Assembly (NCBI GenBank): GCA_041586955.1
Contig: JBFGZE010000010.1
Span: 1 to 59,846, forward strand
Source: Bacteriovoracaceae bacterium
GTDB taxonomy: Bacteria; Bdellovibrionota; Bacteriovoracia; Bacteriovoracales; Bacteriovoracaceae
Direction: 5' to 3'
DNA length: 59,846 nt
A program made the translations under genes and the position numbers. Shown piece after piece: positions 35,519 through 52,649 of this stretch (positions are counted from its first letter, which is position 1; each line of letters begins with the position of its first letter). Below the pieces are notes generated by a model. The model saw only the letters and a list, made by a program, of their open reading frames with translations, made no database searches and was not told the origin of the DNA.

Positions 35519-35902
35519 ATGATGAATCAAAAGAAAATTCTCATTATTGATGACGATATCGATTTAGGTGCACTCTATGCCCACTTTCTAAAAAAGGATT
35601 ATCATTGTGAAGTTCTTAATGACCCTCTTCAGGTCCTAGGTAAACTTTGTTATGAACACTTTGACCTATTATTAACTGATATCATCATGCCTGAATTAAA
35701 TGGTATTGAGTTAATAAAAAAAGTTCGTTCAACCTTTCCCAAAATTAAAATTCTCGTCTGCTCTGAAGGTGGTAGTAGTCATGGTAAAGAAATAGTCGCC
35801 AAAATTCTGTTAGACCAGGCCAAAGAGATGGGCGCCCATCAAGCGTTAAAAAAACCATTTACCCGGCAAGAACTCCGTGCTGCCATCAAAGAATGCCTTT
35901 AA
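35519..35902 (+). CDS. Single-domain response regulator
   Basis: IIDDD, LLTDIIMPELNG, LKKPF. Confidence 0.9.
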   Translation: MMNQKKILIIDDDIDLGALYAHFLKKDYHCEVLNDPLQVLGKLCYEHFDLLLTDIIMPELNGIELIKKVRSTFPKIKILVCSEGGSSHGKEIVAKILLDQAKEMGAHQALKKPFTRQELRAAIKECL

Positions 35903-36657
35903 TCCATTTCGAGCTTACGATTGGCCTCTCTTAGTCGATTCAATAAAGTTTGAATGAGTAGCTCTAACCAGGGGGGTTGCGCCTTAAAAAATGATTGGAC
36001 GTCACCGAGGTACAATTCGTGGACCAAGCACTCCTCAAGAGCACGTACTGTCGCCGAACGAGCTTTCCCGTCGAGAAAGGACATTTCCCCTACTAATTGC
36101 CCCTCTCCAATAACTCCTAGTGGCACTTCTCGCCCATGAGCTTCGTGTAAAACTTGTAATCGCCCTTTTTTGAGCACAAAAATACTATTGGAGAATTCTC
36201 CCTCATGAAATAAAAAATCATTTTTTTCGAGAAAAATTTCTTTGATTTGAATTTTTTTAGCGTGAGACAAACAAGTCTCTACAACTGATTTTAAAAAGGG
36301 AAGTCGAATGGCCTTTGGTACTAGATGTACATCACCCTCTTTCCATTCGATCTCACCTTCTTGGAACTGCGCCCGCGTCCCAGTGAGAATAATAGGTGTT
36401 TCGACTCGCCTTGATTTTTTAAAATTCTTTTTAAGAATCGGCAAGACCTGTTGCCCACTATCATTTACAAGATACGTGATGATAAGGCTGGGAAAGCCCT
36501 CTTCTAACTCTTCTAAAACCTGGTCAAAAGATGCCATCGCCGTTATTTCATAATCAGGAAATTCCTCGGCCAAGAAGTGACCAATTTTTTTAAGAAGGGC
36601 AATATCAGGATCCACTAAAAATATTTTCTTTTGGCAATTTAATCCAATTTCCGTCAT
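35899..36657 (-). CDS. Pseudo-receiver plus cyclic nucleotide-binding domain protein
   Basis: N-terminal REC-like fold lacking the phospho-Asp; LFHEGE, VGEMSFLDGKARSATVRA; no HTH. Confidence 0.85.
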   Translation of the reverse strand: MTEIGLNCQKKIFLVDPDIALLKKIGHFLAEEFPDYEITAMASFDQVLEELEEGFPSLIITYLVNDSGQQVLPILKKNFKKSRRVETPIILTGTRAQFQEGEIEWKEGDVHLVPKAIRLPFLKSVVETCLSHAKKIQIKEIFLEKNDFLFHEGEFSNSIFVLKKGRLQVLHEAHGREVPLGVIGEGQLVGEMSFLDGKARSATVRALEECLVHELYLGDVQSFFKAQPPWLELLIQTLLNRLREANRKLEMD

Positions 36658-39600
36658 TTATGCCTCGCTCTCACAATATAAATCTAAAAGTGCTTTGATT
36701 TTAACCTTATTAAAGGGTTTGCCCAGACTATCGGTAAAACCGGCCTCAGCGTACTCTTTTTGGTCCTTCTCTGAATCGTTGGCCGATAAGGCGACAACCA
36801 CTTGATTGGCCTTGCCTATTCCTTGCTCCCAAGTACGCAGCTTAGAAATGGCCTCAAGCCCTGTCATAATGGGCATATTGATATCCATAAAAACAAAATC
36901 GTATCGTCCTGATTTTATCTTTGATAAACCTTCTTCACCATTTTTAGCAGTGTCTAATTCAATACTCATCCCTTTTGTTAATACTTTAAAAAGCATATGC
37001 ATATCGTCTGAGTCATCCACCAAAAGTAATTGGATCAATTGATCATCGGTTGGAGCATTAATGGCATGAGTTTCTTTTGTTTTATCCTGGGAAGGTGGCG
37101 CCTGAGCGGCTTCTTCTAGCGCGGGAGCTTTTTCGACGATCGATTCAATCTCAGATAAAGTCTCGTCACCAAAATAATCCTCTTCACTTTCGGAAATCTC
37201 GGCCTGAGTATCAAAAACTTTGTCAATAAGGGCCTCTAATTCTTCCATATCAAATGGCTTAGGCAATAAACCTATAATCCCCAATTTCTCCTTAATCTCC
37301 TTAGGCAATTCCATTAAGTTTCCTGAAATTAATATAATAGGCACTTCTTGCTTTGTACCGTTAATCATTTTTGCCATGGTCAGGCCATCAATTTCAGGCA
37401 TACGAATATCTGTGATCAATAAACTAATATCATATTTTTTATAGAGAAAAAGTGCCTCAACACCATTTTTAGCACTAATAATATTATAATTATTGCCTTT
37501 AAGACCTTCCGTAATTATTTCTCGAATACCATCGTCATCTTCCGCAACAAGGATGGTCTTTTGACCGGAGTCAATGCTTTTACCATATTTGGGTGCTTCA
37601 TCGGGGAAGAGATAAGATCTGACATGATCAGCGAGATCCACAATATCTTCTGATTTGCGGAGAAGGGCATCCGCTTCGCGATTAACCTGCTCAATCATAT
37701 CTGTATCAATCGCCTCTGTGGATATAATAACGGGAGTTTTTGCTAGTTTTGCATTTGCGCGAATCCGCTTGAGTGTTTCTAGACCATTGAGATAGGGCAT
37801 TTCTAAATCTAAAATAATGAGGTCAACAGCGCTCTTCTCTAATATCTCTAAAGCTTCAAGGCCATTATAGGCAGTTAGAAGATCGACATCCAAGCTCTTT
37901 AACTTTGATTGGTAAAGACGGATAATTTCAATGGAGTCATCCACTAATAATAAAGTCGGCCGACCTTCAGAAATAATAGGAGTCGCTTCACTAGTATGGG
38001 ATAGAACGCGAGGCAATGTGATAATAAAGGTTGAGCCCTTACCTTCTTGTGACTCCACCCAAATATCACCATTATGCAAACTACAAATATTTTTACAAAT
38101 GGCCAGTCCTAAGCCAGTACCGATTTCCCTATCCTTGACTCGGGCCTGCTCAAATTTATTAAAAATAGTATCAATTTTATCACTAGGAATCCCTGGCCCA
38201 TTATCTGCAATTTCAATTCTTAAAATCTCACTTGATCCATCGATCAAACGCCGCCCCTGAATACTTGTAATTTTAAATTTGATCTTTCCATTTCGAGGCG
38301 TAAATTTTAAAGCGTTTCCTAGGATATTATTGATGACCTGGACAATACGAGCATAATCCCCGGAAATTTCATAATCCTTATCAATTTCAGTAATTATGCT
38401 AATGCCCTTTTCTTGAGATTTTAAAAAATAGGAATCCAAAACATTATTAATCATTTCTTTGACTTTAAACTTTTCGAAATCTAAACGAATCCCACCTTCT
38501 AACCGCGCTAAGTCTAATAGGTCAGTAATCAAATTAAGAGCAAACTTGGCGGAGTTTTTCGAGCGACGAATAAGATCGTTTGAGGTCGCACTAAACTCTG
38601 TATTTTCTTCGATTAAAATATCCAGACTGGTTTCAATCACCGCTAGTGGATTTTTTAAATCATGGGAAACAATCGCCAATAATTCATCTTTATCCCTGGA
38701 AACTTTTTCGATTTCGGCCTTTTGCTTTTTCATATCATCCAAGAGTTCGCTCTTGGCCAAAAGTGCTTGTTCGGCCTGGTCTCGGGCCTCTCGGGTCTCT
38801 CTTTCACTTTTCCGGAGGACTCTTGTGCGCTCATTTACTTGACGAACCATTCCTTGAAACGTCCGTGCCAAAATTCCAATTTCATCTTCGCTTTGTATAT
38901 CCAAGGACACATTGATGTCACCGTGGGTATAGCGACTCGCCATTTTCGTGATGATTTGCAAATTGCGCATAATAAAACTTGTTACCAACCAACCGACCAG
39001 AACCACAATAATAACGAGACTTAAGGCCCAGGCAACCCGAGATAACTGCCCTTCCCGGTAGCGCAGAGCAAGCCAATGCTTAGAGACCCCCACCCCTAGA
39101 CTAAAATAAAAATGACGGTCCATTTTATTAAGATAAAATTTCTTAATAAGAAGAACTTGATCATCACCATGATCTTTATAAAAGATCATTTTCTTTTTTA
39201 ATTTATCATCTAAAAGAAATTCATTATCGATATCGCCAAAGTCACTTTGAATAAAATAACGGAGACCTTTTTCAAAACCAAATGTTTTATTGGAGTGGGG
39301 ATGAATCAGATAGTCCCCATTTAAATTAATAAGATAAAATCGAAAAAGACTTTTATCGCCTTGCTCCAAGACCTGAAAAACATCCTTTCCCTGCTCTAGT
39401 CCAATGGAAAAGGAGCCATTCTTGTTTTTATGGCCAATATAGATGGCGGGAATAGATTCCTTTTCATTTTTAACTAAGATGAAGTCTGAAACAATTGTTT
39501 CATTAGCTTTAGACTGGGTCAAAAGACTGCGAAAGGTGGCCGGCAATCGCAAATGTTTAGGGCCTTTCAAGCTTTGGGCACTTTTTAGGTCGGGAGTTAG

Positions 39601-39888
39601 CCTCCAAAAACCAAGATAAGTATTATCCGTCTTAAGGTAACTTTTTAGGGAGTGATCAGATAAATAGGATTTCGATCGCAACCGATCTTGTTTCCCCCGC
39701 AATATGGCCATCATTCGATGGCCTAAATCTTCTGCACGATGTTCGATTAATTCTTTTTGAATTTCCCAAATGTGTTTATGGCCTTCATATTCGAAAATAA
39801 GGCCAACAATAATAGAGACAACTAACGCCATAAGGGCGAGAAAGGATGTCAACTTTAATGCAATTGAACTAGAAATTAATCTCCACAT
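36658..39888 (-). CDS. Hybrid sensor histidine kinase (two TM, periplasmic sensor, HAMP, HisKA, HATPase, three receiver domains)
   Basis: DEIGILA, VSHDLKNPL, NILGNALKFT, DNGPGI, GTGLGL; three receivers (DLEMP, DIRMP, DINMP). Confidence 0.93.
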   Translation of the reverse strand: MWRLISSSIALKLTSFLALMALVVSIIVGLIFEYEGHKHIWEIQKELIEHRAEDLGHRMMAILRGKQDRLRSKSYLSDHSLKSYLKTDNTYLGFWRLTPDLKSAQSLKGPKHLRLPATFRSLLTQSKANETIVSDFILVKNEKESIPAIYIGHKNKNGSFSIGLEQGKDVFQVLEQGDKSLFRFYLINLNGDYLIHPHSNKTFGFEKGLRYFIQSDFGDIDNEFLLDDKLKKKMIFYKDHGDDQVLLIKKFYLNKMDRHFYFSLGVGVSKHWLALRYREGQLSRVAWALSLVIIVVLVGWLVTSFIMRNLQIITKMASRYTHGDINVSLDIQSEDEIGILARTFQGMVRQVNERTRVLRKSERETREARDQAEQALLAKSELLDDMKKQKAEIEKVSRDKDELLAIVSHDLKNPLAVIETSLDILIEENTEFSATSNDLIRRSKNSAKFALNLITDLLDLARLEGGIRLDFEKFKVKEMINNVLDSYFLKSQEKGISIITEIDKDYEISGDYARIVQVINNILGNALKFTPRNGKIKFKITSIQGRRLIDGSSEILRIEIADNGPGIPSDKIDTIFNKFEQARVKDREIGTGLGLAICKNICSLHNGDIWVESQEGKGSTFIITLPRVLSHTSEATPIISEGRPTLLLVDDSIEIIRLYQSKLKSLDVDLLTAYNGLEALEILEKSAVDLIILDLEMPYLNGLETLKRIRANAKLAKTPVIISTEAIDTDMIEQVNREADALLRKSEDIVDLADHVRSYLFPDEAPKYGKSIDSGQKTILVAEDDDGIREIITEGLKGNNYNIISAKNGVEALFLYKKYDISLLITDIRMPEIDGLTMAKMINGTKQEVPIILISGNLMELPKEIKEKLGIIGLLPKPFDMEELEALIDKVFDTQAEISESEEDYFGDETLSEIESIVEKAPALEEAAQAPPSQDKTKETHAINAPTDDQLIQLLLVDDSDDMHMLFKVLTKGMSIELDTAKNGEEGLSKIKSGRYDFVFMDINMPIMTGLEAISKLRTWEQGIGKANQVVVALSANDSEKDQKEYAEAGFTDSLGKPFNKVKIKALLDLYCESEA

Positions 39889-42896: not shown

Positions 42897-43772
42897 ATGT
42901 TTAAGAAGATACTTTTGGCCATGCTGGCCTTCGGTCTTATTGGCCAAATTCTTTCCTGCGATGAACACGGAACATCAGGAATTGTTGAAGACAACGAAAT
43001 GTGGATTGGCCCTTTTGACAAAGCAGCTAACGACATGACAAAAGAGCGCTTTGACTCCATTCTTGATCGCGTAGAAGCTATCTACGGTCCTGTCATCGGT
43101 CAAAAAGGAAAAAAACTCGTTATTAATAGAAACTGGGAAAGTGGTACTGTTAACGCTTATGCTCAACAAAGCGGTGGAAAATGGATGGTTTCAATGTTTG
43201 GTGGGTTGGCCAGACACGAAGCGATTACAGATGACGCCTTTGCCTTAGTTGCTTGTCACGAAATCGGACACCACATAGGTGGAGCACCTAAAAAGCGTTC
43301 TTGGTATGGATCAACCTGGGCCACAAACGAGGGTCAAGCTGACTACTTCGGTTCAAGTAAATGCCTCCGTAAATATGTAGAGAATGACAATAATATTGAA
43401 ATTGTCAAAACTCTTAATGTCCCTGCAATCGTAACTGAAAAATGTGAGGCCAATTTCAATTCGGCCGAAGAAGTCGCTGCTTGCCAAAGGGGCGCCATGG
43501 CCGGTCTTAGCCTTGGTAACCTTTTCAGGGACCTCAGAAAATTACCAACTGAGCTCAAGTTTACAACACCAGACACACGTGTTGTGACAAAAACAGATCA
43601 TAATCACCCGGCCCCACAATGTCGTGTTGATACCTATTTCCAAGGCGCTATCTGCATCAAGCATCACACTGATGATGTCAGTGACAGAGACGCGACAATT
43701 GGAACCTGTACCCGTGCTAATAGCTTTGAAGATGGACTTCGCCCTCTTTGCTGGTACAAACCTGCTAATTAA
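42897..43772 (+). CDS. Secreted zinc metalloprotease (HEXXH, M48-like), Cys-rich
   Basis: VNAYA, CHEIGHHIGG, NEGQADYF, HPAPQCR; signal peptide; AAGGAGG RBS. Confidence 0.85.
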   Translation: MFKKILLAMLAFGLIGQILSCDEHGTSGIVEDNEMWIGPFDKAANDMTKERFDSILDRVEAIYGPVIGQKGKKLVINRNWESGTVNAYAQQSGGKWMVSMFGGLARHEAITDDAFALVACHEIGHHIGGAPKKRSWYGSTWATNEGQADYFGSSKCLRKYVENDNNIEIVKTLNVPAIVTEKCEANFNSAEEVAACQRGAMAGLSLGNLFRDLRKLPTELKFTTPDTRVVTKTDHNHPAPQCRVDTYFQGAICIKHHTDDVSDRDATIGTCTRANSFEDGLRPLCWYKPAN

Positions 43773-43796: not shown

Positions 43797-43821
43797 GGCC
43801 CCTCTATGAAGGGGCCTTTTT
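43797..43821 (+). terminator. Rho-independent terminator
   Basis: GGCCCCT-N6-AGGGGCC-TTTTT. Confidence 0.85.
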
Positions 43822-44146
43822 GTCTCCAAAATAAACGATATGCCCATCCAAGGACCAATCAAGCGAACAGTATCATTAGGATAAGGCCATCTTTCCTTCC
43901 CATTCCTGCTCCTCACTTCCGCACCTTCTTATTTCGATGAGTTAACCCTTCTCTGCCTTAAAATATCATCAGTTTTTTAAAAATCTCAGCTTTTTTAAAA
44001 AGTCGCCTCATATGTAAATTTCTTATCATAAAAAAAAATCCATATAACTAATTGAAATACAACTAGAAATATGAAGGCAAATCGAAAAAGGTCAGCTTAC
44101 AGGGTAGTTGATCAATAAAATAAGGAATGGCGGTATAATAAAACCA

Positions 44147-44173
44147 TAAGTTTTAGGTCATTCCTGTCGAAAA
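44147..44173 (+). promoter_or_regulatory. Putative FliA (sigma28) promoter
   Basis: TAAG-N15-GTCGAAAA versus consensus TAAA-N15-GCCGATAA. Confidence 0.5.
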
Positions 44174-44276
44174 GTATTTCAATCAGACTTAGCGTGACCA
44201 ATTAAATCGATTGAGGGTATTAAGATTGAATAATTTTTATCTATTCTCTTATTCACAAATTAAATCCGGGGCAAAA

Positions 44277-47200
44277 ATGCCCTTCCTCCTTATATTAATG
44301 TTTTTCTTTGCCAATCAATCACTGTCAGCTGCATGTGGTGCCACAACTCGAATATGGAATTCTAACTCGGGCAATAATACCTGGTCTAAAGTCCAAAACT
44401 GGACCAATAATAACATGCCCGACACAGTCGATGAAAATGCTCTGATACGGGCCGCCCAGTCGGTTACTCATGTCAATGTCGATACCTCAATCTCCTGTCT
44501 TGAAGTCACCTCTGGTGAGTTAAACTCAGAAAATGGAATCACTTTAACCATTTTAGGGGATTATTTTAGGGCACTCTATTTGAACTCTGTTGTCGTCACG
44601 AGCGGCCATAATTTTACAATCGACATGGCCTCAGGCAACCAAACTCTTGAAGTCAAAGACCCACTTAATTATGTCACTCTTTCAACAGATGGTTCTGTTA
44701 CTTTTACTGAGTCCTTTGAAATTAGAAACGCACTCAATATTACAGGGACGGGAACTCAGCTCAATATACAAGCTGACCTCCAACTAACAGATGCAATAAC
44801 TCCCTTCACCATTCCAGCAGGAATTACTGTTGAAGTTCAAAATGGGGCCAAGCTAAAGGCGCTTGGAGGAATTATCGTCAATGGCACTTTACATGTAAAA
44901 GCAGGCGGAGGAGTAGTTATTGGTGATAGTAAAAACCTTACGGTTAACGCTGGTGGGCTTATAAAATTAGATGGAGCACCAGGGAATATCGCCACCATTG
45001 AGGGAGATAATTCTCAATCGTGGGACATGGATGTTGCAGGAGACCTCTATGCTAATTATTTTCGCCTAGACCGAGTTGGAAAAAATAAACTTGGTATTGA
45101 TATCACTGGGAATGTTCAAAAAATGGATTACGGAGAATTCCACTTCATCGAGCCAGCAGCTTATGCTATGACTTGGGGATCTGCTGCAACCCTTCCCGCC
45201 ACCATGTCTAATATGAGTTTCTATGACGATGATGGACATGGTGATAATGGCTCCATTGATGCCAGTTCCTATAATATTAGTGATGTTGCCCTTACCAATT
45301 GGTCGGGGCTAGGATGTACCTCAGAGGGCTGTGCCTTTGAAAATGATACCAATAATAGAATTAATTGGGGTACCCAGGAGGGGGTCAAACTTATTCTATC
45401 GACAAACACCAATACAGGGGCACCAAGTAATCCAATAACTGCTGGAGCTGCTGCAGAAGAATTTGCAATCTTCTCTTTTTCCCTCAATCAAGCGGCGACA
45501 ATGACCAATATAACAGCACTGACATTTTCTCTTGAGGGTTCCGCGGGGCCAGGAGATGTGGATTATATTCAAGTCTTCAAAGACTCAGGAGGCAATTGTC
45601 AAACTCAGGGTGTGCAGATTGGTTCAAACTTAACCTTTTCAGGTAGCCCCGTTGCCACTGCGACTCTTAATATTAGCAACCCTGCCGATTTACAGGTGGA
45701 TTCATCCACCCCAGATTGTATTCATGTCTATTTGAAAACAACAGACTCTGCGGAAAATGCTGTCACTGTTGGTGTCAGTATTGCTGGTACGGGCGATGTC
45801 ACGAACTCCATGAGCTATAGCTTCTCTGATACATCGGGGCCAAAGATTTCTGGCCCTACAGTGACAATCTCTGGTGACCCGACCAGGATTTGGAATGGTC
45901 AGCAAGGTACCTCCTTTCCTAATAGTAATAACTGGACCAACGGTAATGCTCCCACTTCGGCCGATAATTGTCGGATAGGAGCTGGCATGAGCGACCCCAC
46001 ACTGGGGGGCAATCGTGCTTGTCAAAATCTTCAAATCGTCACGGGCGCAGATATTACCTGGGGAGCAAATGACTTTGCCATTTTTGGCAGCCTAAGTGTC
46101 GATTCAGGTGCCATTTTTACCTCTGCTGCTTCCGGAACTTTGACAATGAGTGGTAATACGACTCAGTCCATGGAATTATCAGAACCCTTTCCTGGAAACC
46201 TTATCATTAGTAATACTTCGGCCAGCTCGATCGTATCAGTGAATTCCGATTCCTATGTTGATGGAAACGTGACAGTCACAGATGGAATTTTATCCATCGC
46301 CAACGGCCAAACATTATACGTTGGCGGCAATATTACTGTTCAAACAGGTGCCAAACTTGATATCGAACCTGGAGGAACAATAATAATGCAAACAAATGGT
46401 TCCACCATTACAATTGATGATGGTGCCACACTTGAAGTCATTGGCACAAGTTCTCTTAGATCGACTATTAAGGGTGAAACGAATGCTATCAATTATACCA
46501 TCGCTGTAGGCGGTGGGACTTCTGGGATATTAAATGCTAAATATTATTCTTTAGATAATTTGGGAGCGACTGGGATAACGATTAATGCTGGAGTCACTAT
46601 TGATACCACCAATAATTTATCAGAAGGATCCTTCTCCTGCCCAGCTGATGGTGCCGATATTATTCGTCTCAATGCAGAAATTCCGGGGGATGCCTGGACG
46701 GGGATGAGCTTTTCAAAGGGTGGCTGTACCGTCAATACCTGGGATTCTATTTATACTAATATTACCGCTTCAACTGGGCCACTTACCCTAACGGCCTGGA
46801 GTGGTGATTTAGGAGGAAGCGGGACAGAAAATGTCGCTGCTGGTGATTATAACATCTCCTGGGGCTCCCAATCGAACACGATAAAAATAACCCAACAAGC
46901 AGCACGCACCAACGCTTCTGGAGATCAAGGGACAACCCAGAATATGGGTCGCTGGGGCTTCCAGCAAAATCCTGGATCAGGCTTTAGCAATACCGATATC
47001 ACCTCTTTAAAAGTAAGCCTAAAAGGAACGGGATCTAGTAATGATATTTCGGCCATCCGACTCTACGAAGATAGTGATTGTGATAGTGCTGGAGGAACAT
47101 TATTAGGAACATCAACCTTTTCAGGAAATCCTGCCAGCACAACTTTTACAGGCCTTACCTTTACCGTCGCTGAAGACACGGTATCACCTGCGATGAATTG

Positions 47201-50200
47201 TATTTATGTGGAGTTTGATCTAAATTCATCGGCAACAGATACGGCCACCATTGGCGCTGAGATTTCTAGTGATAACGATATTGTCAATTCTTTAGGATAT
47301 ACTATCGACGCCTCTTATGCTGCCCCTGTGGATCTTGGCACTTTGTCGATAGTCGGAATTACCACAAATTGGACAGGTGCTGTGGATACTGATTGGTTTA
47401 ATGCCGGCAATTGGAGTTCTGGTTTACCAACGGCAAATCTTAATTGTGTAATTTCTAATACTGCCAATGATCCTATTATTAATGGGGGCTCACCTGCTGT
47501 CTGTAAATCGGTTAATATCACCAATGGCGTTGTCGATCTGGACACCGGAGATACTCTTGAGGTTTATGGATCATTTACTAATACCGGAACTTTCACTCAT
47601 GATGGCACTATTAAATTTATGGATAATGGAGTGGATGCGACCAATCAAACCATTGATACCAATTCAACATTAAACACCGTCACTTATGATAAAACGGCAG
47701 GAGGCTCTATCGCTATAGGTTCAGCTTCTTTAACGATGAGTAATTTTGTCATTCCTGCTGGGCAGACATTTGATTTTACCGTGGCAAATGGAAAAACACT
47801 GACAATCAGTAATGGCGGAACCGTTAACTCTGGTACTTTTTTAATTGAGGCCGGTGGAGAGGTTCAAGTGGGGGCATCCCAAACTCTGACGTTAAGTGGC
47901 GGTACTTTTAAAATGAATGGTAATGCCGAATCTCGTCCGGGGGCCTCTGCTCACGATGCATTTCCCACCGCCTATACAACATCAAAGGCGAAGATTTCAC
48001 CAAGTAGTGGAACCTGGAGTTTCAATTCGACTTCTGGAACTATTTATCTTAATGGTTTTGTTATTGAAAATTTAGATGACAATGGTTTTCGCGTTGGCGG
48101 TACCACTATTCTTTCAAAGTTAGATGGCGGCCAGTTTTCTGGGCTATCAACAAATTACGCCTCAATGAAGGCCTTACAATTAAACAGTACTGGAAGCTTG
48201 GTTGCGACATCTTCTAATGTTGCTTTTAACTGGGAAACAAATGCCGAGTCCACGACTCCGGCCAATACTGATGCCTATACCATTGTTTATTCAAGTGGTT
48301 GTGGCAGTCAGACAATCGACTTTACGGGTTGGTATGGTGATTGGTATGAAGAACCAGCGACTTTTGATACCTCGACAAAAGTCGATACCACAAGTTGTAC
48401 AGTCAATTTAAATGGCTCTGCTTCGGCCATAAGTTTAATTTCTTTTACCGCGACACCTCATAACGCCGCTGTTGATCTAGAATGGGAGACTTCACTCGAG
48501 TTAGATCACGATGGTTTCAATGTTTATCGTTCTGATGTTTCTGGCGAAAACTTTGTACAAATAAATGGTGACTTGATTCGCAATAACCTTTATTCACTAA
48601 GCTATAAAGGCAAGTACCGTTTTATTGATTATGATGTAGCAAATGATCAATCCTATCATTATTATATTGAAGATGTAGACCTTTTTGGTAATACAGAAAT
48701 GCATGGCCCTCGTATTGTGACACCTCTTGCCACTTTGAGTGCACCTGGTGCCACCGCCGGTGACGTTAACGATGGGGGAAGTAATGCCAATGATGGGGAG
48801 ACCCCTGTTACTGACCCTGGAACTATTCAAAATCCATCGTTTAGGGACCTTGGTGATGGGGTTCAAATCTTATCACAAACATCAACAGATTTACGCATAA
48901 AGATTACCCCTCCTACCCTCACGATTAATGCAAGTGCATGGGATGGAACTTATGATGATCTTTCTATGTTGAGTTATTCAAAAACCTTAGAGGCCGGCAA
49001 ACCAGAACTTTTAAGACGAACTTTATTAATTGAAGTCCAATCATTTTTGACCTCGGCGTCTTTAAACTCGGAGCAAAGTTCTGACTCGGTGATGAATGGC
49101 CATAAAGTACAACCAGCACCTAATTGGGTCCTCAATGGCTCTAATAACTTAGTCGCCTCTTACTCACTGGACAATGCTTTCTATGCTATCAATCAGTTTT
49201 CACCAAATAATTATATTACAGTAGAACCAAACCTATTAAGTGTCGGTGGTAAGAAATTTCTTAAGATTATCGTCAATCCTGTCAAATTCAACCCCGTCGA
49301 TCAGGACCTCCATTTATTAACCGAGACGATCTTAGATATTGGCCTAGATGGTTCATCTTGGCAGGTTGTTCCGTCTGATAATAATTTTAATGTTGCAGCT
49401 TCCATTATAGCGAATACATTGAGAATAGATTATTCAGCAGAAGGGGTTTATGAAGTCACTTATGACGATTTAGTGGACTCCAATGTTGAAGGGCCATTTA
49501 ATAACGTTGATCCGAGCAATCTTCGACTATATCAGGGCGAGACAGAAATACCTTTGGAAGTCATAGACAATGACAGCAGCTTAACTTTTAATTCGGGTGA
49601 TAAAATTCGCTTTTATACCCGTTATTTTGGACCGAAAGATGACACTAAAAATCAAGTAACTTTATCTGTTGTTGATATTAATGGAAGTGGAAATTCTCCC
49701 TTGCGTATGGCCAATATTGATGGCGACCCTTCTGGCCAATATTTAAATTTTGAGGATGAGGTTTTATATAATGCGAAGGCCGAGGAGACGACTGATGTCT
49801 ACTTGAGTGAACAATACGGCGATGGCCTTGATCATTTTATTTGGAAAATCATTAGATCCTTTCCTGGCCTCGACGAATTAATAATGCCAATAGATTTACC
49901 CCACCTTAATACTAACAGTTCAAATATGGTTGAGGTCAAGGTATCCTTGAAGGCCGGAAACTTAGGAATTTCAGAATTTGACCATCACCTTGGACTTTAC
50001 ATTAATGACTCAATAAGTACCAACGCAGAGGTTTATTTTAAAACAAAAGATTATCAGACAATTTCTTTTATGGTGGACTCTTATCATTTTGTTCCTGGCA
50101 ATAATAATATCAAGATTAAAACTTTCGGAACCAACGCCAATGCCATGGGCCTTTGGGAAACAATTATTATTGACAAGGTGGAAGTCGATTATTACGGCAT

Positions 50201-51791
50201 GCGTTTGGCGGATTCAGATATCGCCAATATCTCTAATGTCGATAAAAACTTAGTGGTTAGCGTCGGCAATTTTAGCAATTCGACCATAGATGTCTTTGAT
50301 ATTTCAGGCCCTGGAGCGGTCGCCAAATTATCAAATGTCAATATTTCCTCTAGCGATGGTGGCAATACTTATGATGCAACCCTTTTTACCGACGAGGGGA
50401 ATGGTAAAAATGGTAAGAGATATTATCTCGTAGGCAATAATCAATACCTTAAGCCTGTTGCATTGAGCTTAACAACTGGTTACGACTCCTCTTTATTAGA
50501 CACCACGAACAAGGCGGACCTTTTAATTATTGGTGCCAAGTTTTTAACCGATAGAACAGAGAGTCTTGTTCAGCAAAGGGTTTCACAAGGTCTATCCGTT
50601 AAAGTAGTCACCCTCGATCAAATTTACGCTGAGTTTGGTATGGGCGCCACTTCCGCTGATGCGATCAAAGACTTTATTAACTATACACAAGGTAATTGGA
50701 CACCGGCCTATCCTAAATATGTCCTCTTCATAGGAGACGGAACATTTGACCCTAAAAATCTTCTTGCTGGTGGTAATTATTCCGGGGATTTTCCAATGCG
50801 TTTAGAAGAAGGACGCTTTATGGACTTTGCCTCTGACAATTGGTTTGCCAGTTCCTATGAAACTTATATTCCGTCTGTTGCTGTTGGAAGGATTCCTACC
50901 AACGATGCCTCTAAAGTGGAAGACTTTATTAATAAAATGATTGACTATGAAAATGGCCTAAAAGCTCCTGACACAAATTTGATGAAAATGAGCTTCATCG
51001 CAGGCGCCGAAACTGATGATTGGGATGACTTTGCAGAGCGCTCAACTGTTTTAAAAGATATGAATAGTCGCTTTTCAAATGAGCTTATTGACCGGGCCAA
51101 TTATGGCAGTGATGCCGATCTTAAAACTGATATCCTCGACCGTTTTAACAACGACACACCTTTTATCATCAATTATATGGGCCATGGAGCTGCAAGTTTT
51201 TGGGGCCCTATTTTCCAAAATACAGATGCCCGAACACTCTCCAATGAGCAATTGCCAATCGTTTTGGCCCTTAATTGTGAAAATGCTTATTTTTACGATT
51301 ATCAACGAAGTGATAGTTATATCACTTTGGGAGAAGATTTAATCCTTAATCGCGAGGGTGGTGCCATCGCCTTTATTGGCTCCACCACCCAAACCACGCC
51401 AGCGGCACAAATGTACCTGGCCCATGAGTTTTACCGTGAGCTAATTGGTGAAACCAATGATTATTATAAACGAGTTACTTTAGGTGATATTCTTCAACGG
51501 GCGAAAATCGCGGTGGGTGAAGACAATTATTCAAAAGATGTCGTTAAATCAATGAGCTTATTTGGAGACCCATCTATGCCATTACCGGCCTCATTATTTA
51601 AAAAACGACCTCCGCCTGTTGCAGCAGCTGCTCCAGCGGAATCAGGAGGTGGAGGATGTTCTTTAGGAGCAAATGATGGGACGCCTATTCACTGGACTCA
51701 GGGTGTAATGGAATACCTATTTTTAATGCTGGCATTCTGGGGTATTCGGCGCACCATAAAAGGAATACTTACCTCTTCTCATCGAAATTGA
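44277..51791 (+). CDS. Giant secreted repeat protein with a C25 (gingipain/PorU-like) cysteine peptidase and a C-terminal GGGGC sorting signal
   Basis: Signal peptide from ATG 44277; three long repeats; LISFTA..V.LEWET..E...GFNVYRS domain; YVLFIGDG, VAVGRIP, NYMGHG, LNC, GGAIAFIG, LFGDP; ESGGGGCS-TM-RR tail. Confidence 0.9.
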   Translation: MPFLLILMFFFANQSLSAACGATTRIWNSNSGNNTWSKVQNWTNNNMPDTVDENALIRAAQSVTHVNVDTSISCLEVTSGELNSENGITLTILGDYFRALYLNSVVVTSGHNFTIDMASGNQTLEVKDPLNYVTLSTDGSVTFTESFEIRNALNITGTGTQLNIQADLQLTDAITPFTIPAGITVEVQNGAKLKALGGIIVNGTLHVKAGGGVVIGDSKNLTVNAGGLIKLDGAPGNIATIEGDNSQSWDMDVAGDLYANYFRLDRVGKNKLGIDITGNVQKMDYGEFHFIEPAAYAMTWGSAATLPATMSNMSFYDDDGHGDNGSIDASSYNISDVALTNWSGLGCTSEGCAFENDTNNRINWGTQEGVKLILSTNTNTGAPSNPITAGAAAEEFAIFSFSLNQAATMTNITALTFSLEGSAGPGDVDYIQVFKDSGGNCQTQGVQIGSNLTFSGSPVATATLNISNPADLQVDSSTPDCIHVYLKTTDSAENAVTVGVSIAGTGDVTNSMSYSFSDTSGPKISGPTVTISGDPTRIWNGQQGTSFPNSNNWTNGNAPTSADNCRIGAGMSDPTLGGNRACQNLQIVTGADITWGANDFAIFGSLSVDSGAIFTSAASGTLTMSGNTTQSMELSEPFPGNLIISNTSASSIVSVNSDSYVDGNVTVTDGILSIANGQTLYVGGNITVQTGAKLDIEPGGTIIMQTNGSTITIDDGATLEVIGTSSLRSTIKGETNAINYTIAVGGGTSGILNAKYYSLDNLGATGITINAGVTIDTTNNLSEGSFSCPADGADIIRLNAEIPGDAWTGMSFSKGGCTVNTWDSIYTNITASTGPLTLTAWSGDLGGSGTENVAAGDYNISWGSQSNTIKITQQAARTNASGDQGTTQNMGRWGFQQNPGSGFSNTDITSLKVSLKGTGSSNDISAIRLYEDSDCDSAGGTLLGTSTFSGNPASTTFTGLTFTVAEDTVSPAMNCIYVEFDLNSSATDTATIGAEISSDNDIVNSLGYTIDASYAAPVDLGTLSIVGITTNWTGAVDTDWFNAGNWSSGLPTANLNCVISNTANDPIINGGSPAVCKSVNITNGVVDLDTGDTLEVYGSFTNTGTFTHDGTIKFMDNGVDATNQTIDTNSTLNTVTYDKTAGGSIAIGSASLTMSNFVIPAGQTFDFTVANGKTLTISNGGTVNSGTFLIEAGGEVQVGASQTLTLSGGTFKMNGNAESRPGASAHDAFPTAYTTSKAKISPSSGTWSFNSTSGTIYLNGFVIENLDDNGFRVGGTTILSKLDGGQFSGLSTNYASMKALQLNSTGSLVATSSNVAFNWETNAESTTPANTDAYTIVYSSGCGSQTIDFTGWYGDWYEEPATFDTSTKVDTTSCTVNLNGSASAISLISFTATPHNAAVDLEWETSLELDHDGFNVYRSDVSGENFVQINGDLIRNNLYSLSYKGKYRFIDYDVANDQSYHYYIEDVDLFGNTEMHGPRIVTPLATLSAPGATAGDVNDGGSNANDGETPVTDPGTIQNPSFRDLGDGVQILSQTSTDLRIKITPPTLTINASAWDGTYDDLSMLSYSKTLEAGKPELLRRTLLIEVQSFLTSASLNSEQSSDSVMNGHKVQPAPNWVLNGSNNLVASYSLDNAFYAINQFSPNNYITVEPNLLSVGGKKFLKIIVNPVKFNPVDQDLHLLTETILDIGLDGSSWQVVPSDNNFNVAASIIANTLRIDYSAEGVYEVTYDDLVDSNVEGPFNNVDPSNLRLYQGETEIPLEVIDNDSSLTFNSGDKIRFYTRYFGPKDDTKNQVTLSVVDINGSGNSPLRMANIDGDPSGQYLNFEDEVLYNAKAEETTDVYLSEQYGDGLDHFIWKIIRSFPGLDELIMPIDLPHLNTNSSNMVEVKVSLKAGNLGISEFDHHLGLYINDSISTNAEVYFKTKDYQTISFMVDSYHFVPGNNNIKIKTFGTNANAMGLWETIIIDKVEVDYYGMRLADSDIANISNVDKNLVVSVGNFSNSTIDVFDISGPGAVAKLSNVNISSSDGGNTYDATLFTDEGNGKNGKRYYLVGNNQYLKPVALSLTTGYDSSLLDTTNKADLLIIGAKFLTDRTESLVQQRVSQGLSVKVVTLDQIYAEFGMGATSADAIKDFINYTQGNWTPAYPKYVLFIGDGTFDPKNLLAGGNYSGDFPMRLEEGRFMDFASDNWFASSYETYIPSVAVGRIPTNDASKVEDFINKMIDYENGLKAPDTNLMKMSFIAGAETDDWDDFAERSTVLKDMNSRFSNELIDRANYGSDADLKTDILDRFNNDTPFIINYMGHGAASFWGPIFQNTDARTLSNEQLPIVLALNCENAYFYDYQRSDSYITLGEDLILNREGGAIAFIGSTTQTTPAAQMYLAHEFYRELIGETNDYYKRVTLGDILQRAKIAVGEDNYSKDVVKSMSLFGDPSMPLPASLFKKRPPPVAAAAPAESGGGGCSLGANDGTPIHWTQGVMEYLFLMLAFWGIRRTIKGILTSSHRN

Positions 51792-51821
51792 TAGCGGAGA
51801 GGATTAAACAAGATGTTTCTC

Positions 51822-52649
51822 TTATCTTTTGAGTTTGTTATTTGTTTTTTTAGGTTTGGCCAACTCTTCTAGCCTTTTAAGCATTCTTAACTGAGAAGGA
51901 GGTGTCGAATCTCCACCTGAGCCTGTATATCCAATAATGATCCCATTTCTCAAAATCCTATAAGCTTTCCAGGAGAGCTCAGTGTTTGGAAACCTTCTAA
52001 TCACTTCTTTTAAATAAAAATTTTCGGTCCAATACTCATAATCATTCCAAGAACGAAACCTTATGCTCCCTAACATCAGAAGAGACTCTCCGATATATTT
52101 TCCATCGTCATAGTTAAAAACATAGGGAATAAGATAAGTCGCCGCAATATAGAAATCAGCATTACCTGACTGATCGGCCGGAAACTTTAATTTTGTTTTT
52201 CCCTGGTCATAGAATTTTTTTCCCAGATGAAATAGATCATCTGCTTTTTTGACATTTTTAGGCATTTTGCTAAGTTTTTGCCATTCTTTAGAGACTGAAA
52301 TCCATTCTTGAATATTGTCTTCATAAGCGTCATTTAACTGAATCTCTTGTAATGTTTTTTCAAAAAACTCGATGGCCTTTTTTGGAGATTTCTCTACAGT
52401 TAGATAAATTCGTCCGATCTGATCGATGGCCCAAAACAATTCTTTCTCATTTTTTGAAAGCTTATGCCCTGTAAGGTATTGTTGAAATAATTCTAATGAT
52501 TTCTGGTAATTTCTTTTATTAAATTCTTTTTGGGCTTCTTTATAAACACTGTCTATAGATGTCTGAGAATTAGGTGTTTCCCGTGATTGCTTCTGGGTCG
52601 TTGAACACGAAGCGAAGAGAAGAGATAGCGCCAGCAATACTAATTTCAT
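51822..52649 (-). CDS. TPR-containing lipoprotein
   Basis: Lipobox FASC; TPR-like helices; VIRRFPNTE. Confidence 0.8.
   Translation of the reverse strand: MKLVLLALSLLFASCSTTQKQSRETPNSQTSIDSVYKEAQKEFNKRNYQKSLELFQQYLTGHKLSKNEKELFWAIDQIGRIYLTVEKSPKKAIEFFEKTLQEIQLNDAYEDNIQEWISVSKEWQKLSKMPKNVKKADDLFHLGKKFYDQGKTKLKFPADQSGNADFYIAATYLIPYVFNYDDGKYIGESLLMLGSIRFRSWNDYEYWTENFYLKEVIRRFPNTELSWKAYRILRNGIIIGYTGSGGDSTPPSQLRMLKRLEELAKPKKTNNKLKR

Follow-up and report, generated by a model that had tools for sequence, protein, structure and literature searches.

A giant Bdellovibrionota protein combining a predicted PorU-type C25 module with a conserved cysteine tail in a genome without detected type IX secretion markers

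PorU is regarded as a component of type IX secretion (T9SS) and, to our knowledge, is the only C25 enzyme known as a protein-anchoring transpeptidase; Mizgalska et al. (PNAS, 2021) reportedly described it as a protein of seven domains. PorU acts as a transpeptidase (PMC11285876). In this work, we describe a gene at positions 44277..51791 (forward strand) of a 59,846-nt stretch from a marine Bacteriovoracaceae bacterium (contig JBFGZE010000010.1 of assembly GCA_041586955.1), referred to below as the window, which is contig C10 of a 3.46-Mb assembly (194 contigs, 88% complete). The encoded giant protein of 2,504 aa joins an adhesin-like N-terminal part to a complete PorU/gingipain-type module, as had been proposed in a first-pass annotation made from the sequence alone. 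That observation is borne out, with more structure to it than the first reading described, and it represents a PorU-type C25 enzyme outside type IX secretion.

Other described systems resemble the C-terminal end of the giant protein and its candidate partner genes. In Myxococcus, the MYXO-CTERM signal is cut by the CPBP protease MrtX in a Cys-dependent manner, and display is thought to proceed via the type II system (Guo, Haft and Wall 2025, PMC11980579). Related enzymes have been predicted for the JDVT-, Synerg- and CGP-CTERM signals in a preprint (Haft, 10.1101/2023.06.07.544157), and the word ‘Bdellovibrio’ is absent from its main text. The linear polyphosphorylated peptide (LPP) gene clusters of Bacillota are located within polysaccharide loci and combine an HprK-like kinase and an NTP transferase with an exporter, a leader peptidase of the signal-peptidase-like type and a discrete recognition element (Popov et al. 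2026, PMC13381572); the paper contains no mention of C25.

The catalytic module of the giant protein begins with a gingipain-type prodomain-like domain (48861..49409, + strand, aa 1529–1711), which is matched by Pfam PF08126 (Propeptide_C25) with an E value of 1.9e-7 and 30.9 bits against a cut-off of 22. A profile comparison links it to the Kgp prodomain (5mun, E 6e-7), and Foldseek places it next to the RgpB and Kgp prodomains with template modelling (TM) scores of 0.68–0.70. It is followed by a PorU-type N-terminal cluster (49419..50522, + strand, aa 1715–2082), which contains the segments LRIDY..GVYEVTYDDL..LRLY..GDKIRFY and subsequent beta domains and is recognized by hhalign, the NCBIfam PorU model and Foldseek, and by the Peptidase_C25 catalytic domain itself (50523..51584, + strand, aa 2083–2436; Pfam PF01364, E 4.6e-68, 230.6 bits against a threshold of 23). 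The residues His2303 (codon 51183–51185) and Cys2334 (codon 51276–51278) are invariant in 34/34 aligned sequences and align with the GHG motif and the catalytic Cys of both RgpB and PorU. Judging from the sequence, the catalytic module is apparently complete and active. The propeptide-like region, the similarity to the PorU N-terminus and the C25 domain with an intact His and Cys had all been noticed by the first-pass annotation, and each was recovered by these searches.

The relationship to PorU was traced at the level of both profile and predicted fold. The NCBIfam PorU model (NF033707) matches aa 1872–2437 on model positions 176–733 of 1095 with 180.6 bits, against a cut-off of 420, and PorU2 scores 140.3 bits against 450. 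In profile searches of the PDB, PorU (6za2) ranks at E 9.5e-38, RgpB at 1.9e-21 and Kgp at 4e-11. When the family profile was aligned by hhalign with a reference PorU (1,328 aa, from a flavobacterial genome, 1016.8 bits on NF033707), family columns 1715–2439 corresponded to PorU residues 165–942 (probability 99.8%, E 7.7e-29, 681 columns), while PorU residues 943–1328 (386 aa, comprising immunoglobulin (Ig)-like domains and the C-terminal domain, CTD) had no counterpart in the giant family. The AlphaFold2 model of aa 1500–2450, built with 34 sequences, reached a mean predicted local distance difference test score (pLDDT) of 89.9 and a predicted TM score (pTM) of 0.87. With this model, Foldseek ranked the PorU crystal structure 6za2 first (E 1.3e-25, 840–855 aligned columns), followed by the mature domain of RgpB (TM 0.66–0.68, root-mean-square deviation 3.4 A), Kgp, both prodomains and then the caspase-like proteases separase and CHAT. 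A dyad not placed in a caspase-like fold had been named in advance as a possible refutation; at the level of the domain fold, the model is of the caspase-like (clan CD) type, with an RgpB TM score of 0.68. The module is also best described, on profile and model comparisons, as PorU-type rather than gingipain-type, since a PorU N-terminal cluster of ~370 aa, absent in gingipains, lies between the prodomain-like fold and the catalytic domain. A word-indexed search with the module alone returned four hits, with no named PorU among them.

Markers of type IX secretion were not detected alongside this module. Searches of the organism's 88% complete genome for SprA, GldM, GldK and the Por_Secre_tail CTD yielded no match (0/4), and SprA was likewise not found in any of five near-complete relatives carrying the giant gene (0/5). 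The same searches were applied as positive controls to five Bacteroidota genomes reached by a 16S probe, in which SprA was detected in 4/5 genomes and Por_Secre_tail gave 104, 20 and 5 matches in three genomes. No match to the family profile was obtained with a profile built from 30 genuine T9SS CTDs (probability 0.06%). The earlier statement that neither a T9SS CTD nor T9SS genes were visible extends, in these searches, from the window to the genome, and the giant protein most likely works without type IX secretion.

The giant protein belongs to a conserved Bdellovibrionota family. A word-indexed search yielded 58 proteins at E <= 0.001, the best 36 of which (the query's own entry included) were found at E <= 2.4e-122 with 31–56% identity and are mostly 2,460–3,540 aa long. 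All descriptive source names among these 36 read ‘hypothetical protein’ or ‘unnamed protein product’, and the organisms named are Bacteriovoracaceae, Bdellovibrionales, Bdellovibrio sp., Bdellovibrionaceae, ‘Proteobacteria bacterium SG_bin7’ and the alga Chrysoparadoxa australica, the last being a partial 1,498-aa record on a 4.5-kb contig. A fragment from Halobacteriovoraceae was found in the module-only search. The names of these relatives (Bacteriovoracaceae, Halobacteriovoraceae, Bdellovibrionales) agree with the earlier suggestion that the organism is a probable predator. In the more distant hits, the C25 domain is joined to giant repeat proteins of other kinds (DUF11 and others), and these proteins stop immediately behind the catalytic domain or terminate in CTD-like domains. 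In a phylum sample of 301 Bdellovibrionota genomes, the module (counted at E <= 1e-20) was present in 28/301 genomes and 19/170 genera, including 11/67 genomes of the window's own family and 0/35 of another family (f9). Because it is carried by only 28/301 genomes and by none of the 35 in that family, the giant gene appears, by gene content, to be accessory and patchy and not a core predation gene. The literature searched contained nothing on the giant protein or its family, in line with the first-pass view that the system was undescribed.

Additional C25 genes were encountered during this survey. One relative contains three giant C25 genes, two of them in tandem (G066:C9:105191-121700, loci L012 and L167); the second of the tandem genes (open frame of 2,858 aa) encodes a different N-terminal region and the same tail. 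The organism's own genome contains a second, small C25 peptidase on another contig (C57:8929-10599, + strand, locus L009), a 556-aa open frame with a signal-peptide-like N-terminus, an N-terminal region without a Pfam match, a C25 catalytic domain and no tail.

The C-terminal end of the giant protein is a conserved feature of its own. A Pro/Ala linker and the tail proper (51585..51788, + strand; tail aa 2456–2504) follow the catalytic domain, and the order of elements is the linker, SGGGGCSLGANDGTPIHWTQG with its SGGGGC motif, a spacer, a hydrophobic membrane helix (VMEYLFLMLAFWGI, ~51702–51746) and a basic end starting with RRTIKG. The tail Cys (Cys2461, codon 51657–51659) is present in 35/35 family members with a complete C-terminus, in which the consensus reads G-G-G-C-S-[AL]-x-A, a spacer often containing P-W, G-L-L-E, the helix and basic residues. 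The distance from the GDPx motif to the Cys has a median of 31 aa (range 27–41; n=29/35, the remainder being without the motif), and that from the Cys to the helix a median of 17 aa (range 12–23). The first-pass annotation was right that no CTD is present; it overlooked this different, Cys-bearing membrane tail, the spread of the family over 28/301 genomes and the candidate cassette partner described below. Among curated signals, JDVT-CTERM (NF033191) matched the tail at 14 and 15.4 bits against a cut-off of 27, and MYXO-CTERM (TIGR03901) gave no match on the giant's tail. A search of 1.84 billion representatives with a profile of 24 tails retrieved 39 proteins at E <= 1e-3, with the match located at the extreme C-terminus in 38/39; the 21 of these 39 that were scanned comprised 17 C25 proteins or fragments, one trypsin-like protein, one fn3 giant and two proteins without a family. 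Since the profile was trained mostly on the giants' own tails, counts of other tail carriers are lower bounds. The tail variant is undescribed, and it most likely decides the location of the protein.

Similar tails occur on other proteins of the same genome. The tail profile detected two carriers there, the giant protein and a 1,890-aa fn3/He_PIG/TSP3-repeat protein (C52:7044-12713, − strand, locus L005), which has a nearly identical tail (GGGGCSAFAS, spacer, helix, basic end) and is the clearest non-C25 bearer of the long tail. Three matrixin-like metalloproteases (HExxHxxGxxH; C7:15583-16374, − strand; C51:9891-10664, + strand; C38:16943-18733, − strand) carry shorter GGC/ACGS, helix and basic tails, detected by pattern search only, and their best NCBIfam hit, below the cut-off, is the myxosortase-dependent metalloprotease family MXAN_2677/2678. 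Other Bdellovibrionota likewise have shorter tails, carried by a subtilisin and by metzincins (MYXO-CTERM 17.7 bits against 20, JDVT-CTERM 18.7 against 27), and the metzincin domains of short-tail proteins reach up to 79.9 bits on the myxosortase-dependent metalloprotease family, with a cut-off of 250. The notion that C25 enzymes are general processors of Cys tails was rejected, as only 1/6 genomes with such tails and without the giant has any C25 gene.

With respect to the machinery that could act on such tails, the organism's own genome encodes a type II secretin (468.9 bits against a cut-off of 351), and no CPBP protease was found in it by PF02517, by phmmer with the enzymes of five relatives or by the Mrt_core model. 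Nor was any sorting enzyme present among the 21 neighbours scanned of the other four tail-bearing genes of this genome. In the phylum sample, CPBP genes occur in 212/301 genomes, namely in 21/28 giant carriers and 191/273 non-carriers. From the sequences compared, the analogy of the tail to MYXO-CTERM appears to hold in form and to fail for the cognate enzyme.

A partner for the giant protein is suggested by its gene neighbourhood in relatives. In 7/10 fetched related loci, a fixed gene set lies beside the giant gene. In some of these loci it follows the giant gene in the same orientation; in others it lies upstream and is transcribed divergently. This cassette encodes a small precursor, an HprK-like P-loop protein, a PqqD, an S24-like peptidase, an NTP_transf_5 protein, a second PqqD, a radical SAM (rSAM)/SPASM protein, a permease and an ABC ATPase. 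All nine genes are found in the usual order in the organism's own genome, outside the window (C40:19490-25046; locus L180:5491-11041), with at least one glycosyltransferase gene just upstream. The precursor encoded there is 67 aa long and comprises a Lys-rich leader and a core (FGALCNG..GGRK..FCN..LTS) with two Cys residues and a C-terminal Ser; the latter is present in 4/4 precursors recovered from 11 loci scanned by motif. The match of the cassette to ScmC (TIGR04249) is weak (41.9 bits against a cut-off of 125).

The distribution of the cassette follows that of the giant gene. The HprK-like marker was found in 31/301 genomes of the phylum sample, and comparison with the module showed 26 genomes with both, two with the giant only, five with the cassette only and 268 with neither, so that the marker is present in 26/28 genomes with the giant and 5/273 without it. 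The two giant-only assemblies are 77% and 90% complete and consist of 710 and 540 contigs, respectively. Counted by genus, the cassette is present in 19/19 genera with the giant and 4/151 without, and Fisher tests, uncorrected for kinship, gave p = 2.7e-30 for genomes and 1.3e-21 for genera. The two elements also vary together within genera (both in 1/4 genomes of genus g2 and in 1/6 of genus g8), and in 17/26 co-occurring genomes no more than about 4 kb of a shared contig separate the marker from the giant gene. This co-occurrence and frequent adjacency point to a partner system rather than to a free-standing digestive protease. The peptide partner is undescribed; no link between such cassettes and C25 enzymes was found in the literature searched, where co-mention of PorU and PqqD was incidental as judged from title and abstract.

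Taken together, these observations incline us slightly towards the view that the giant is anchored in the envelope and, independently of T9SS, acts as a PorU-type peptidase or transpeptidase in concert with the cassette peptide. According to this model, the giant protein would be exported by the Sec route, and its tail would first hold it in the inner membrane, either transiently or permanently. Release and display at the cell surface might then occur via the type II system, by analogy with MYXO-CTERM and GlyGly-CTERM proteins. The catalytic module would act on the small, exported and modified cassette peptide, which may serve as its substrate or as an acceptor, either as a peptidase or, like PorU, as a transpeptidase.

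Several observations weigh against this model. The tail scores below the cut-off of every curated sorting-signal model, CPBP was not found in 7/28 giant carriers (the organism's own genome included), four of which are 97–99% complete, and the CPBP rate in carriers equals the background, which leaves tail cleavage and surface display unsupported. The cassette encodes its own S24-like peptidase and so may not need the C25 domain. In the organism studied, the cassette lies on another contig and not beside the giant gene, and none of the window's neighbours on either flank recurs beside the giant in 10 related loci, so no conserved operon partner is seen. Among the five cassette-only genomes, three have a small C25 gene (open frames of ~500–517 aa) and two have no C25 gene at all. 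A second marker, the rSAM/SPASM protein at E <= 1e-40, a threshold that misses more distant families, was found in 15/301 genomes, which comprise only 13/28 carriers and 2/273 others. Finally, the co-occurrence counts are uncorrected for shared ancestry, and the Fisher p values overstate the case, because relatives are not independent.

The giant protein could instead be a free-standing, surface-exposed or secreted digestive protease-adhesin, the repeats of which bind prey or matrix and which becomes proteolytic after removal of the prodomain, as in gingipains, while the cassette is merely a frequent neighbour in a shared surface-polysaccharide island. The gingipain-type prodomain fold, the intact dyad and the predatory lineage, going by the names of relatives, would all fit such a role, as would the observation that proteases (metzincins, one subtilisin, one trypsin-like enzyme) make up most of the other Cys-tail proteins in the phylum and that linkage of the giant gene to the cassette is missing from this window and from 9/26 co-occurring genomes. 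However, the module is of the PorU type, with the ~370-aa cluster inserted between prodomain and catalytic domain, its presence and absence follow the cassette even within genera, and the family was not found in 273/301 genomes or in any of the 35 genomes of family f9, which argues against a general predation tool; we consider this explanation rather unlikely. A further proposal, made by analogy at every step and in our opinion very unlikely, is that the PorU-like domain might sort its own protein by cutting the tail at GGGC|S, in cis or between copies, and might pass the new C-terminus to an amine acceptor (perhaps the modified peptide or a glycan), so that a surface anchor would replace the membrane helix. 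It draws on the near restriction of the long tail to C25 proteins (17 of the 21 scanned matches, out of 39 found), on the fixed distance between the catalytic domain and the Cys, and on the seven carriers in which a myxosortase-type protease was not found. Against it, the distant C25 giants (P0039–P0049) end after the catalytic domain and have no tail, so the tail is no general substrate of the module, and shorter Cys tails occur in 5/6 tested genomes without a C25 gene. The suggestion that a cryptic type IX system exists, for which the protein would serve as PorU orthologue or as T9SS cargo, is scarcely credible: NF033707 is its best named hit and PorU its best structural match, but the score remains far below the cut-off, PorU residues 943–1328 have no counterpart, SprA, GldK, GldM and the CTD were not found in the genome, nor SprA in the five near-complete relatives, with positive controls in place, and the 30 genuine CTDs match nothing in the family profile.

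In a further reading, the giant and the unlinked cassette would form one T9SS-independent surface-attachment system, with PorU-type thioester chemistry joining a protein C-terminus to the exported peptide, itself cross-linked and either phosphorylated or nucleotidylated, or to a glycan that carries this peptide. The joined C-terminus would possibly be the giant's own, after removal of the Cys/helix tail. We regard this reading as distinctly unlikely. If it were true, it would represent a sortase-like anchoring route in diderms outside Bacteroidota, with possible kinship to the ancestor of the PorU step, and the tail would act as a sorting signal of a new Cys type that needs no myxosortase.

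The N-terminal 1,385 aa of the giant protein consist of three divergent copies of one unit, as revealed by BLASTP self-comparison, which bears out the ~1,380 aa of repeats noted in the first-pass annotation. Repeat 1 (44337..45944, + strand, aa 21–556) starts with a conserved A-A-C-G-x-T-x-R-x-W...NW motif and aligns with repeat 2 (45945..47300, + strand, aa 557–1008) at E 3e-17 (26% identity over 447 columns). Repeat 2, in which a run of short beta strands is followed by a beta-sandwich, aligns in turn with a partial repeat 3 (47301..48431, + strand, aa 1009–1385) at E 9e-5, and the third copy is also delineated by the structure model. The predicted structure of aa 557–1500 (pLDDT 88.4, pTM 0.57) is almost entirely beta, with strand runs followed by sandwich-like units. 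The repeats had no Pfam match at relaxed thresholds, no PDB profile match and no atlas lead (0.76), and Foldseek of the aa 557–1500 model against the PDB gave no match at E <= 1e-3; the weak rows (best E 1.5e-3) comprised phage tailspike-like, sialidase-associated and FN3/Ig domains. The repeat part of the model is adhesin-like by shape alone, and the repeats probably form a binding stalk.

Between the repeats and the prodomain lies a conserved beta-sandwich-like domain (48405..48722, + strand), defined by invariant W, T, E, H, G, F, R, N, Y, D and HGP positions in the family alignment and by strands with high pLDDT. It had been read earlier as an FN3/Ig-like domain at ~48430–48720, and the all-beta, beta-sandwich-like character of the unit is confidently predicted; the assignment to FN3/Ig did not hold to the same degree, as the domain has no Pfam match and isolated FN3/Ig domains match its fold only weakly (E about 7e-3 to 9e-3). 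A language-model lead (0.85) that the domain is a T9SS CTD was rejected, being unsupported by hhalign with either eight CTD-like tails (probability 0.12%) or the 30 genuine CTDs (0.06%).

The gene itself is a single open frame on the + strand, which starts at 44211 (TTG) or 44277 (ATG) and ends with the stop codon at 51789–51791. The 2,504-aa product counts from the ATG, and an identical database entry (P0003) has equal length. The ATG is preceded 6 nt upstream by GGGG, its position is shared by homologues, and TTG codons in the same frame, at 44211 and 44226, offer alternative starts. The hydrophobic signal-peptide-like segment (44277..44336, + strand, aa 1–20; MPFLLILMFFFANQSLSA|AC) was read by eye from the translation, in agreement with the signal peptide noted earlier. 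Upstream, the preceding gene ends in a terminator-like hairpin (43797..43816, + strand; 7-pair stem with 6 GC pairs and a T-run), separated from the giant gene by a 460-nt intergenic spacer, and the downstream gene is convergent; owing to this arrangement, the giant gene appears to be a stand-alone (monocistronic) transcription unit outside any operon. Contigs of one marine DNA run tile positions 44000–52000 at >=99% identity without indels, which provides no independent support, as the run may be the source sample.

The genes that flank the giant gene in the window include, directly upstream, a 291-aa lipoprotein-like open reading frame (42897–43772, + strand) with an LSC lipobox-like start, an HEIGHH zinc-protease-like motif and many Cys residues, which belongs to no Pfam or NCBIfam family and is separated from the giant gene by the strong terminator. 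The convergent gene (51822–52649, − strand) encodes a 275-aa lipoprotein whose N-terminal part weakly resembles BamD/YfiO and YbgF (E 1.6e-8, well under the cut-off), and it does not recur beside the giant in relatives. Further upstream, a hybrid histidine kinase (35899–39888, − strand; HAMP, HisKA, HATPase_c and three receiver stretches) adjoins a cNMP-binding protein.

The significance of the locus lies in the conservation of a full PorU-type core in a phylum without detected T9SS, where it is joined to a probable binding stalk and a different membrane tail. It offers a testable handle on two questions, namely the role of PorU-like giants outside Bacteroidota and the purpose of kinase/rSAM peptide cassettes, and it extends Cys-type C-terminal sorting tails to a lineage that often lacks the known processing enzyme.

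Compared with the gingipains RgpB and Kgp (1cvr, 4ief, 4rbm, 5mun), the giant protein shares the clan CD catalytic fold and the prodomain fold, and both Pfam domains match. Unlike the gingipains, it contains ~370 aa of PorU-type domains between prodomain and catalytic domain, lacks the haemagglutinin/adhesin domains and the CTD, and has its adhesin-like part at the N-terminus rather than at the C-terminus. With MYXO- and JDVT-CTERM, the tail has in common its position at the extreme C-terminus and its three-part build, in which an invariant Cys within a Gly-rich motif is followed by a membrane helix and then a basic end, and the systems also share secreted-protease carriers related to myxosortase-dependent metalloproteases and the presence of a type II secretin. 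The giant tail differs by its additional 12–23-aa spacer with P-W and G-L-L-E motifs and its scores below the cut-offs, and by the carriers (7/28) in which CPBP was not found. The LPP clusters resemble the partner cassette and not the giant itself, sharing a leader peptidase, PqqD, an HprK-like kinase, a nucleotidyltransferase, an exporter and a glycosyltransferase neighbour, whereas the cassette adds an rSAM/SPASM enzyme and a precursor with two Cys residues and a C-terminal Ser. The SynChlorMet cassette (ScmC) is also near the partner cassette, although the ScmC score is far below its cut-off. PorU (6za2) remains the best match in both sequence profile and fold, with homology running through the N-terminal cluster and the catalytic domain and with the dyad aligned. 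In contrast to PorU, the giant protein has neither Ig-like domains nor a T9SS CTD, and no T9SS markers were found in its genome; its module is preceded by ~1,500 aa of orphan repeats and followed by a Cys/membrane-helix tail, and it is linked to a peptide cassette where PorU is linked to PorV/Q/Z.

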